Part shown: positions 1,340-3,545 of the stretch, in pieces
How positions within the stretch are numbered: position 1 is the stretch's first letter
How the letters are laid out: each line of letters opens with the position of its first letter
DNA from: Escherichia coli
Lineage (GTDB): Bacteria > Pseudomonadota > Gammaproteobacteria > Enterobacterales > Enterobacteriaceae
Direction: 5' to 3' (one strand)
Assembly: GCF_003334785.1 (NCBI RefSeq)
Contig: NZ_QOWV01000047.1
DNA length: 4,409 nucleotides
Made by a program: the position numbers and the translations under genes
The notes under the pieces: generated by a model
Seen by the model: only the letters and a program-made list of their open reading frames with translations
Database searches by the model: none
What the model was told of the DNA's origin: nothing

Positions 1340-2301
1340 AGGATAACACCGTGCCACTGAAATTGATTGCCCTGTTAGCGAACGGTGAATTTCACTCTGG
1401 CGAGCAGTTGGGTGAAACGCTGGGAATGAGCCGGGCGGCTATTAATAAACACATTCAGACACTGCGTGACTGGGGCGTTGATGTCTTTACCGTTCCGGGT
1501 AAAGGATACAGCCTGCCTGAGCCTATCCAGTTACTTAATGCTAAACAGATATTGGGTCAGCTGGATGGCGGTAGTGTAGCCGTGCTGCCAGTGATTGACT
1601 CCACGAATCAGTACCTTCTTGATCGTATCGGAGAGCTTAAATCGGGCGATGCTTGCATTGCAGAATACCAGCAGGCTGGCCGTGGTCGCCGGGGTCGGAA
1701 ATGGTTTTCGCCTTTTGGCGCAAACTTATATTTGTCGATGTTCTGGCGTCTGGAACAAGGCCCGGCGGCGGCGATTGGTTTAAGTCTGGTTATCGGTATC
1801 GTGATGGCGGAAGTATTACGCAAGCTGGGTGCAGATAAAGTTCGTGTTAAATGGCCTAATGACCTCTATCTGCAGGATCGCAAGCTGGCAGGCATTCTTG
1901 TGGAGCTGACTGGCAAAACTGGCGATGCGGCGCAAATAGTCATTGGAGCCGGGATCAACATGGCAATGCGCCGTGTTGAAGAGAGTGTCGTTAATCAGGG
2001 GTGGATCACGCTGCAGGAAGCGGGGATCAATCTCGATCGTAATACGTTGGCGGCCATGCTAATACGTGAATTACGTGCTGCGTTGGAACTCTTCGAACAA
2101 GAAGGATTGGCACCTTATCTGTCGCGCTGGGAAAAGCTGGATAATTTTATTAATCGCCCAGTGAAACTTATCATTGGTGATAAAGAAATATTTGGCATTT
2201 CACGCGGAATAGACAAACAGGGGGCTTTATTACTTGAGCAGGATGGAATAATAAAACCCTGGATGGGCGGTGAAATATCCCTGCGTAGTGCAGAAAAATA
2301 A
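1336..2301 (+). CDS. birA: Bifunctional biotin-[acetyl-CoA-carboxylase] ligase and biotin operon repressor (BirA)
   Basis: 321-aa ORF recognised as E. coli BirA. N-terminal wHTH region around residues 22-46 ([26 protein letters not shown]). Biotin-binding loop GRGRRGRKW at residues 115-123 (nt 1678-1704). Start ATG 1336-1338 overlaps the murB stop (ATGA). Stop TAA 2299-2301. Confidence 0.96.
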
Positions 2302-2304
2302 GAA

Positions 2305-2324
2305 AGGGGAGTATTCGCTCCCCT
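2305..2324. terminator. Intrinsic terminator hairpin shared by convergent birA and coaA (probably bidirectional, stronger for coaA)
   Basis: 7-bp stem AGGGGAG (2305-2311) / CTCCCCT (2318-2324) with a 6-nt loop. On the - strand the hairpin is followed by TTTCTTATTTTTCTG (T-rich, overlapping the birA 3' end). On the + strand it is followed by the less U-rich GCAAATTATTTGCG. It sits in the 28-bp gap between the birA stop (2299-2301) and the coaA stop (2330-2332). Confidence 0.6.
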
Positions 2325-2329
2325 GCAAA

Positions 2330-3280
2330 TTATTTGCGTAGTCTGACCTCTTCTACCGCATGATTAGCACTTTTCGTCAGGATTAAACTGGCGCGCTCAC
2401 GAGTAGGTAGAATATTTTGCTTTAAGTTCAGCCAGTTGATCTCTTTCCACAATGTCATGGCAGTCTTAATCGCTTCTTCTTTAGTTAATTTCGCGTAGTT
2501 ATGAAAATAGGAATCCGGGTCGGTAAAAGCCCCTTCGCGGAATTTCAGAAAACGGTTGATATACCATGTCTGAAGTAAGTCTTCCGGTGCATCAACATAT
2601 ATCGAAAAATCGACAAAATCAGAAACAAATACATGATGTGGATCGTGTGGATAATCCATCCCGCTCTGTAAGACATTTAACCCTTCAAGAATTAAAATAT
2701 CAGGCTGAACAACCGTTTTATCTCCATCCGGGATCACATCATAAATAAGATGTGAGTAAACAGGTGCTGTAACGTTTGGCACGCCGGATTTGAGATCGGA
2801 AACAAACTTCACCAGGCGATGCATATCATACGATTCCGGGAAGCCTTTCTTCTTCATCAGACCACGTTCTTTCAGAACCTGATTAGGGTGAAGGAAGCCA
2901 TCTGTAGTGATCAGTTCAACACGACGATGTTCCGGCCAACGGCTTAATAGCGCCTGCAATACACGGGCGGTTGTACTTTTCCCCACCGCGACACTGCCAG
3001 CAATACTGATAATGTAAGGAATGCGTTGCCCGTTGGTACCAAGAAACTGTTCCAGAACTGCCTGACGGCGCAGATTCGAGCTTATATAGAAGTTCAGCAA
3101 ACGTGACAAAGGTAAATAGATCTCGGCAACTTCTTCTAACGAGAGATCTTCATTAATACCTTTGAGACGGGCGATCTCATCTTCCGATAACGTCATAGGT
3201 ACGGAATCACGCAGAGCTGCCCACTGGTTGCGGTCAAACTGTAGGTAAGGCGTCATTAACGTTTGCTCTTTTATACTCAT
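2330..3280 (-). CDS. coaA: Type I pantothenate kinase (CoaA), first step of coenzyme A biosynthesis
   Basis: Translation from ATG at 3280 (minus strand) gives the 316-aa protein [20 protein letters not shown]..., which I recognise as E. coli CoaA. Walker A P-loop GSVAVGKST (residues 95-103, nt 2972-2998 on the - strand) contains K101. The six-frame ORF runs further upstream to an ATG at 3436 (368 aa), but the recognised protein starts at 3280. No strong Shine-Dalgarno sequence upstream. Confidence 0.93.
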
Positions 3281-3545
3281 AAGCATGTTTCTGGCGGTCA
3301 TAGCTCTATCGGCAAAGCGATATTTGCCATGGCGCGTCACAGTTCTGTTGAATGGGTTAATGGGCAGGAGGGTAACACCAGATGGGGAGGAATAATAAGA
3401 AAAAATCTCTGCCAGGAAGCTATCGTTGAAAAGCAATGTGACAGATATTCCATCTGATAAAAAGAATTATGGTTTAGCAGGAGCGCATTGTTGAGCACAA
3501 TGATGTTGAAAAAGTGTGCTAATCTGCCCTCCGTTCGGCTGTTTC

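Follow-up and report, generated by a model that had tools for sequence, protein, structure and literature searches.

Introduction

Bidirectional (overlapping) terminators between convergent Escherichia coli genes, of which the primary list is reportedly that of Ju, Li and Liu (SEnd-seq, 2019), are the closest described counterparts of the element considered here, a single hairpin in the spacer between the 3′ ends of birA and coaA. The element lies in a stretch of 4,409 nucleotides (nt) of E. coli DNA (contig NZ_QOWV01000047.1 of assembly GCF_003334785.1), called the window below, which is a K-12-type chromosome segment with murB and birA in plus orientation, coaA in minus orientation and then the tRNA cluster thrU-tyrU-glyT-thrT. 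The surroundings of the spacer show no difference from K-12 MG1655, and of 5,426 complete genomes of E. coli, 5,421 contain 421 bases around the hairpin unchanged, with the genes annotated as birA and coaA. Published ends are given as MG1655 positions, which from murB onward equal the window position plus 4,171,746.

In the model case of the class, the ynaJ-uspE bidirectional terminator, the share of polymerases released was 9% in one direction and 39% in the other (Wang, Ju & Liu, bioRxiv 10.1101/2022.10.23.513370). The birA-coaA element resembles it in that the convergent genes are set apart by a short spacer with one stem-loop, across which their transcripts overlap at the 3′ ends, the U-tracts are unequal and each direction leaks on its own. 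As in other members of the class, the stem-loop is common to both genes and the published ends of both strands flank the stem. Bidirectional terminators are, however, said not to resemble intrinsic ones, whereas the coaA side of the present element looks fully canonical. A canonical intrinsic terminator is matched on the minus strand by a 7-bp GC-rich stem, a 6-nt loop, a U-tract and an end 4-6 nt into the tract, while the plus strand differs in having the stem without the U-tract. Part of the template of the coaA U-tract is birA coding sequence, as is common where convergent genes are tightly packed. A third kind of end was described by Dar & Sorek 2018 (PMC6061677), who found that Rho-dependent transcripts end precisely past stable stem-loops that lack U-tracts and protect the RNA against PNPase and RNase II. 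The plus strand is like these in its lack of a U-rich tail, its end right after the stem and its bicyclomycin-sensitive transcription downstream, but it is unlike them in offering no clear rut-like C-rich stretch just downstream and in having a stem that doubles as an intrinsic terminator of the opposite strand.

We propose that the shared hairpin defines the 3′ ends of both transcripts in an asymmetric fashion, acting as an intrinsic terminator for coaA and as a leaky element for murB-birA, whose ends depend partly on Rho and on trimming; we put the probability of this explanation at about 0.78. Bidirectional terminators of convergent gene pairs are a known class, and public supplementary tables already contain the 3′ ends of the birA-coaA locus, though they do not discuss them individually. 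In the SMRT-Cappable-seq study of Yan et al. 2018, these ends carry the mark 'novelTTS' in comparison with RegulonDB. No entry for the birA-coaA locus exists in the TERMITe supplement, and the paper that names coaA, birA and terminators together deals with operon order and not with the site in the birA-coaA spacer.

The hairpin between birA and coaA

The second gene of the murB-birA unit, birA, occupies 1336-2301 on the plus strand (321 codons, MG1655 b3973) and ends with the TAA stop codon at 2299-2301; its extent agrees with the open reading frame list and with full-length murB-birA transcripts in the SMRT-Cappable-seq data. From the other side, coaA (2330-3280, minus strand, 316 codons, b3974) ends with a TAA that appears on the plus strand as TTA at 2330-2332. 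The spacer of 28 bp at 2302-2329 contains one hairpin, which is shared by both strands and consists of the 5′ arm AGGGGAG (2305-2311), the loop TATTCG (2312-2317) and the 3′ arm CTCCCCT (2318-2324). Its stem is a perfect one of 7 bp, five of them GC pairs, and is separated from the stop codons of birA and coaA by 3 and 5 nt, respectively. This anatomy had been read correctly in the first-pass annotation, which was made from the sequence alone and described two stop codons 28 bp apart with one 7-bp GC-rich stem-loop (2305-2324) close to both gene ends. It also placed a T-tract for coaA across the last codons and stop codon of birA, and CAGAAAAATAAGAAA is indeed found at 2291-2305.

Stability and rarity both set this hairpin apart. 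The plus-strand RNA is predicted to fold with -14.3 kcal/mol into eight pairs, including one U·G pair, around a 4-nt loop, and the minus-strand RNA with -12.3 kcal/mol into seven pairs around a 6-nt loop; against dinucleotide shuffles the folding z-scores were -3.3 to -3.7 on both strands. A shuffled 4.4-kb window is expected to contain 0.33 perfect hairpins of at least 7 bp with at least five GC pairs, and a 48-bp target about 0.004. A chance hairpin is ruled out by this expectation of about 0.004 together with the conservation in 68 species described below. A loose terminator consensus scan of the whole window returned three hits where 4.0 were expected, i.e. no enrichment, and called the spacer site on the minus strand only. 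An Rfam scan of the whole window reported the four tRNAs only, with no structured RNA family or riboswitch at the spacer.

One of the other hits of the consensus scan lies on the plus strand at 2951-2969, antisense to coaA and about 620 nt past the shared hairpin, where CGCCTGCAATACACGGGCG is followed by GTTGTACTTT. Shuffled sequence yields terminator-like hits of this sort at least as often as the window does.

Termination of coaA

In the coaA direction the stem is followed by a U-tract, UUCUUAUUUUU. Its template at 2293-2304, which gives UUCUUAUUUUUC in the minus-strand RNA, is made up of 3 nt of the spacer, the birA stop codon at 2299-2301, the Lys321 codon AAA at 2296-2298 and the Glu320 codon GAA at 2293-2295. 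U accounts for 9 of the 11 nt 3′ of the stem. When tails were scored with the d'Aubenton-Carafa/TransTermHP weighting, the minus-strand T-tail reached 4.4-4.8, a value at the 99.4-99.8th percentile when every 15-mer of the window is ranked. The 8-nt RNA:DNA hybrid is predicted at -4.5 kcal/mol and thus ranks among the weakest 1.2% of window 8-mers (Sugimoto nearest-neighbor values).

Three data sets place the 3′ ends of coaA mRNA within this tract. Term-seq by Adams et al. 2021 gave an end at 4174046 on the minus strand, found in two conditions and classified as 'primary coaA, antisense birA'; SMRT-Cappable-seq (Yan et al. 2018) gave a coaA unit from 4175107 to 4174045, or 3361 to 2299 in the window; and the TRS analysis of RNAtag-seq data gave ends at 4174044 and 4174045. 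These positions, 2298-2300 in the window, sit in the birA stop codon, 4-6 nt past the stem, and they bear out the earlier statement that the 3′ coding sequence of birA doubles as the template of the coaA U-tract. Intrinsic terminators are recognized by a GC-rich stem of 5-14 bp, a loop of 3-8 nt and an adjacent U-tract in which the transcript ends, and every one of these features is present on the minus strand. Judged by its sequence, the hairpin is a canonical intrinsic (Rho-independent) terminator for coaA.

Some coaA transcription continues beyond the hairpin into a zone antisense to birA (2046-2214, minus strand). Among the SMRT-Cappable-seq reads of coaA, 17 end at the site, 11 within 50 nt downstream and 11 further on, with a median read-through of 32 nt. 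A secondary 3′ end lies at 2214 (4173960 in the TRS analysis), and Adams et al. reported a bicyclomycin-sensitive region on the minus strand at 4173792, i.e. at 2046 in the window (Rho score 4.11, p = 1.2e-8, from 800-nt windows of low coverage). That region relates to the coaA read-through transcripts and not to the hairpin site. Past the hairpin, the minus-strand RNA is C-rich and G-poor, with a C/G ratio of 1.2-2.1 over the 400 nt scanned and of about 2 around 2044-1984, a composition that fits a Rho site.

Ends of murB-birA transcripts

In the birA direction the same stem lacks its partner. The plus-strand tail, GCAAATTATTTGCG, is a degenerate U-tract at 2325-2338 that comprises 5 nt of the spacer, the coaA stop codon at 2330-2332 and the last Lys and Arg codons of coaA in reverse. 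Read as GCAAAUUAUUU, the tail has a T-tail score of 1.7-2.4, which lies between the 31st and 75th percentiles of window 15-mers and is the level of random sequence; among 68 orthologous sites it ranks fourth lowest, the median being 4.9. T occupies one of the four positions that follow the GC core (2324-2327), as against at least three in 57 of the 68 orthologues. The 8-nt hybrid, with 7 of 8 positions A or U, is predicted at -7.3 kcal/mol and is weaker than about 86% of window 8-mers. By tail score, consensus scan and comparison with the 68 orthologues alike, the plus strand has no U-rich tract 3′ of the stem.

Published ends of murB-birA mRNA nonetheless flank the hairpin at 2326 and 2329 on the plus strand. 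The first is the end of the murB-birA unit at 4172033-4174072 in the SMRT-Cappable-seq data (Yan et al. 2018), and the second is the terminus at 4174075 that the TRS analysis of RNAtag-seq labels 'birA primary' and found significant in three replicates. The two ends lie 2 and 5 nt past the stem, the expectation for an intrinsic terminator being an end 7-9 nt past it and within a U-tract; they are precise ends just 3′ of a stable stem-loop that lacks a U-tract. With the coaA ends, they make the two transcripts overlap by 27-32 nt across the stem-loop. Most full-length plus-strand reads pass the hairpin (74 of 106, about 70%): 32 SMRT-Cappable-seq reads end at the site, 56 in the next 50 nt and 18 beyond that, and the median read-through is 72 nt. 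The zone that they enter, antisense to coaA at 2503-2548, contains a bicyclomycin-sensitive peak at 4174249 (2503 in the window, about 180 nt past the hairpin; in Supplementary file 2 of Adams et al. its Rho score is 3.58, with p = 1.3e-7) and a secondary terminus at 4174294 (2548) that was significant in two of three TRS replicates.

These observations bear on the first-pass annotation in two ways. The proposal that one element ends both transcripts stands as far as the positions of the ends are concerned (2298-2300 on the minus strand, 2326 and 2329 on the plus strand), and it falls short in the symmetry and efficiency that it implied, given the missing plus-strand U-tract, the 74 of 106 plus-strand and 22 of 39 minus-strand reads that pass and the bicyclomycin-sensitive regions downstream on both strands. 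Mapping of 3′ ends on both strands, which had been named as one way to check the proposal, returns in the published data both ends at the hairpin and read-through beyond it, each on both strands.

Weighing of the explanations

Because the plus strand lacks a U-tract, its ends hug the stem, most reads pass and transcription downstream is Rho-sensitive, we favor a mixed origin for the birA-side end. According to the mechanism that we propose for coaA, the hairpin would form in the nascent RNA and the U-rich hybrid of UUCUUAUUUUU would allow release of an RNA that ends within the birA stop codon. In murB-birA RNA the same hairpin, in slightly more stable form, would fold with no U-tract behind it, so that only a minority of polymerases would stop there. 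Most would continue into the antisense strand of coaA and be stopped diffusely, at least partly by Rho, and the resulting read-through RNAs would probably be trimmed back to the hairpin by 3′ exonucleases, leaving ends 2-5 nt past the stem. We infer that the birA-side end combines a minority of hairpin-dependent termination events, aided by the AU-rich hybrid, with trimmed read-through RNAs. Ribosomes probably add to the leak. According to Li et al. 2016, ribosomes almost fully repress a terminator placed a few bp after a stop codon, and maximal efficiency is reached only beyond about 30 bp. By analogy, this suggests that terminating ribosomes at the birA and coaA stop codons, which are 3-5 nt from the stem, would hinder folding of the hairpin and increase the leak in both directions.

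Several observations weigh against this explanation. The coaA direction leaks as well, since 22 of its 39 SMRT-Cappable-seq reads pass the site, and a canonical terminator is not the same as an efficient one. At the hairpin, the tables of the Term-seq study by Adams et al. show a minus-strand end and no plus-strand end, and the second sheet of the TRS supplement gives the coaA end only; the birA-side end is therefore either weak or dependent on conditions. The Rho calls rest on 800-nt windows of low coverage (75/36 reads in the absence and 82/141 in the presence of bicyclomycin), and part of the signal could stem from antisense promoters within coaA that bicyclomycin unmasks, rather than from birA read-through. 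Finally, no rut site is evident in the plus-strand RNA, whose C/G ratio is 0.7-1.2 over the first 280 nt past the hairpin.

Among the alternatives, the one that survives best holds that the hairpin terminates coaA only, while murB-birA transcription always passes it and is terminated by Rho in antisense coaA, the ends at 2326-2329 being purely the work of exonucleases. We consider this possible, if rather unlikely. Its end type is the one described by Dar & Sorek 2018, with a stable stem-loop, no U-tract and an end right after the stem, and it accommodates the Rho score of 3.58 at +4174249, the secondary end at +4174294 and the heterogeneity of the plus-strand ends, with 56 reads within 50 nt and 18 beyond. 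However, the median read-through of 72 nt falls short of a Rho peak some 180 nt away, the Rho call has coarse resolution and low coverage, and the sequence just downstream on the plus strand offers no clear C-rich, G-poor stretch. In addition, an AU-rich tail beside a hairpin of -14 kcal/mol would be expected to yield some intrinsic termination.

An improbable alternative, the one implied by the first-pass annotation, is that the hairpin is a symmetric and efficient intrinsic terminator, the AU-rich tail GCAAAUUAUUU being sufficient for release of birA RNA. The two data sets with plus-strand ends 2-5 nt past the stem agree with it, as do the greater stability of the plus-strand hairpin (-14.3 kcal/mol), the hybrid that is 7/8 A/U, is predicted at -7.3 kcal/mol and is weaker than 86% of window 8-mers, and the symmetric design of the majority of orthologues. 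In the window itself, though, one T in the four positions past the GC core and a tail score at the level of random sequence speak against it; the consensus scan leaves the plus strand uncalled, some 70% of full-length plus-strand reads pass, the Term-seq tables of Adams et al. hold no plus-strand end, and a Rho-sensitive region follows downstream. Moreover, in the comparable ynaJ-uspE terminator, the direction with the shorter U-tract alone released only 9% of polymerases.

Head-on collision between RNA polymerases that converge and pause at the hairpin, as the main cause of termination on one or both strands, would be consistent with a convergent pair whose 3′ ends overlap by 27-32 nt over the stem-loop and with a poor U-tract in one direction, as in the ynaJ-uspE model terminator, but it is doubtful at a locus where both genes have low expression, with 170 and 56 reads at their start sites, the model being best suited to highly expressed pairs with trailing polymerases, and the coaA direction already has full intrinsic-terminator features.

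The locus is a clean and well-conserved example of packed convergent genes with a common terminator, in which the stop codon and last codons of one gene template the U-tract of the other. It also illustrates that the formula of one hairpin serving as two terminators can mask a strong asymmetry, which calls for caution in terminator prediction. Editing of the last birA codons or of the birA stop codon would alter the coaA terminator, a point of relevance to the engineering of birA or coaA 3′ ends. Beyond annotation the importance of these findings is limited, and they contain nothing unexpected to a specialist.

Conservation and variation of the hairpin

The comparative set consisted of one genome per species carrying CoaA and provided 80 loci from the Enterobacteriaceae. 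In 68 of the 80 species birA converges on coaA, with a spacer of 23-47 bp in 67 of them and of 65 bp in one, and all 68 have a GC-rich hairpin in the spacer, most commonly with the stem GGGAGC/GCTCCC. There are 62 distinct hairpin sequences, made up of 21 distinct stems, always matched, and 56 distinct loops. Matched variants of the arms include GAGGAGC/GCTCCTC, GGAGAGC/GCTCTCC, GGGGGAT/ATCCCCC and GGGGC/GCCCC, while pairing the 5′ arms with the 3′ arms of other species, as a partner-swap control, gave Watson-Crick pairs only in 65%. Pair types were counted by script from the loop outward, MAFFT having put the 5′ arms out of register as loop lengths differ. The stems are perfect by definition, and the informative parts of the comparison are the partner-swap control and the diversity of stems and loops.

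In 60 of the 68 species, the 9 nt that precede the GC core include at least five A and the 9 nt that follow it at least five T, a pattern which argues that the ancestral design was a symmetric bidirectional intrinsic terminator. In the window the A-tract is intact, with A at 7 of 9 positions, and the T-tract is degenerate (TGCAAATTA), with T at 3 of 9 positions and at 1 of the first 4. The T-tract is likewise degenerate in E. albertii and in one other Escherichia species. By this comparison, E. coli and its closest relatives have lost the birA-side T-tract that most Enterobacteriaceae retain, which is a modest new point.

Within E. coli the plus-strand tail is polymorphic, reading TGCAAA, TGAAAA or TTTAAA. 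The TTTAAA tail is present in E. coli strain 2013C-4282; the allele of locus L003, a genome labeled E. coli that carries this tail in its full 94-nt context, had no close match among complete E. coli genomes. A highly speculative extension, to which we give very little credence, is that decay of the birA-side T-tract in Escherichia routinely lets murB-birA transcription run tens to hundreds of nt into antisense coaA, until Rho or collisions stop it, and that this could serve as a tunable antisense or interference input of the cell-wall/biotin operon on pantothenate kinase, the rate-setting enzyme of coenzyme A synthesis, the strength of which would be set by the tail polymorphism.

The variable sites of the E. 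coli spacer are 2312 and 2316, at loop or loop-closing positions, and 2325-2326 in the plus-strand tail. K-12 has T and C at the first two, which gives a T·G closing pair, and most strains have C and A, which give a C-G pair and an ATTA loop. The six pairs of the GC core are invariant in the E. coli strains sampled. In the natural isolate E. coli RMDEC465 (locus L087, NZ_CM177019.1; 205-235 and 1645-1675) an IS4 element is inserted within the birA-coaA hairpin, with a 12-bp target duplication, GAGCTAATGCTC, that takes in the loop and the inner part of the stem. The insertion divides the shared terminator and leaves only a 4-bp mini-hairpin on each side.

In the other 12 of the 80 species, which belong to Enterobacter, Leclercia, Lelliottia, Silvania and Tenebrionibacter, coaA is not convergent with birA. 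The loci concerned, downstream of coaA, are L035, L048, L051, L056, L059, L061, L063-L065, L070, L078 and L080; L042 lacks birA as well. In 11 of the 12 species, coaA opposes another gene over a different and fully symmetric hairpin, AAAAAAACCGGCGATAATCGCCGGTTTTTTT, so that the partner gene has been swapped and a terminator design of the bidirectional type retained. L042, from Tenebrionibacter, has a different sequence downstream of coaA.

Neighboring features of the window

Upstream of birA, murB occupies 311-1339 on the plus strand, according to the open reading frame list and the MG1655 annotation. The birA start codon overlaps the murB stop codon in an ATGA at 1336-1339, an arrangement that suggests translational coupling inside the murB-birA unit. 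The mechanically called reading frame of coaA reaches an upstream TTG at 3436, an extension of 3281-3436 beyond the annotated ATG start at 3280. The coaA transcript starts at 4175107 (3361 in the window), which is inside the extension, and this supports the shorter, annotated coaA.

Three perfect GC-rich hairpins precede murB, at 93-115, 143-163 and 191-214. They are the distal rrnB terminator region that is familiar from cloning vectors. In the SMRT-Cappable-seq data, murB-birA transcripts start at window position 287, directly 3′ of these hairpins. Window positions 1 to about 89 differ from MG1655, which has rrfB and rrnB-T1 there, and match the 3′ end of IS66-family elements, including the end of tnpC and a terminal CGCTTAC that equals the IS66-type inverted repeat GTAAGCG. 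The IS66-like sequence meets the distal rrnB terminator region near position 90, and from this junction the source strain seems to have an IS66-like insertion just 3′ of rrnB.

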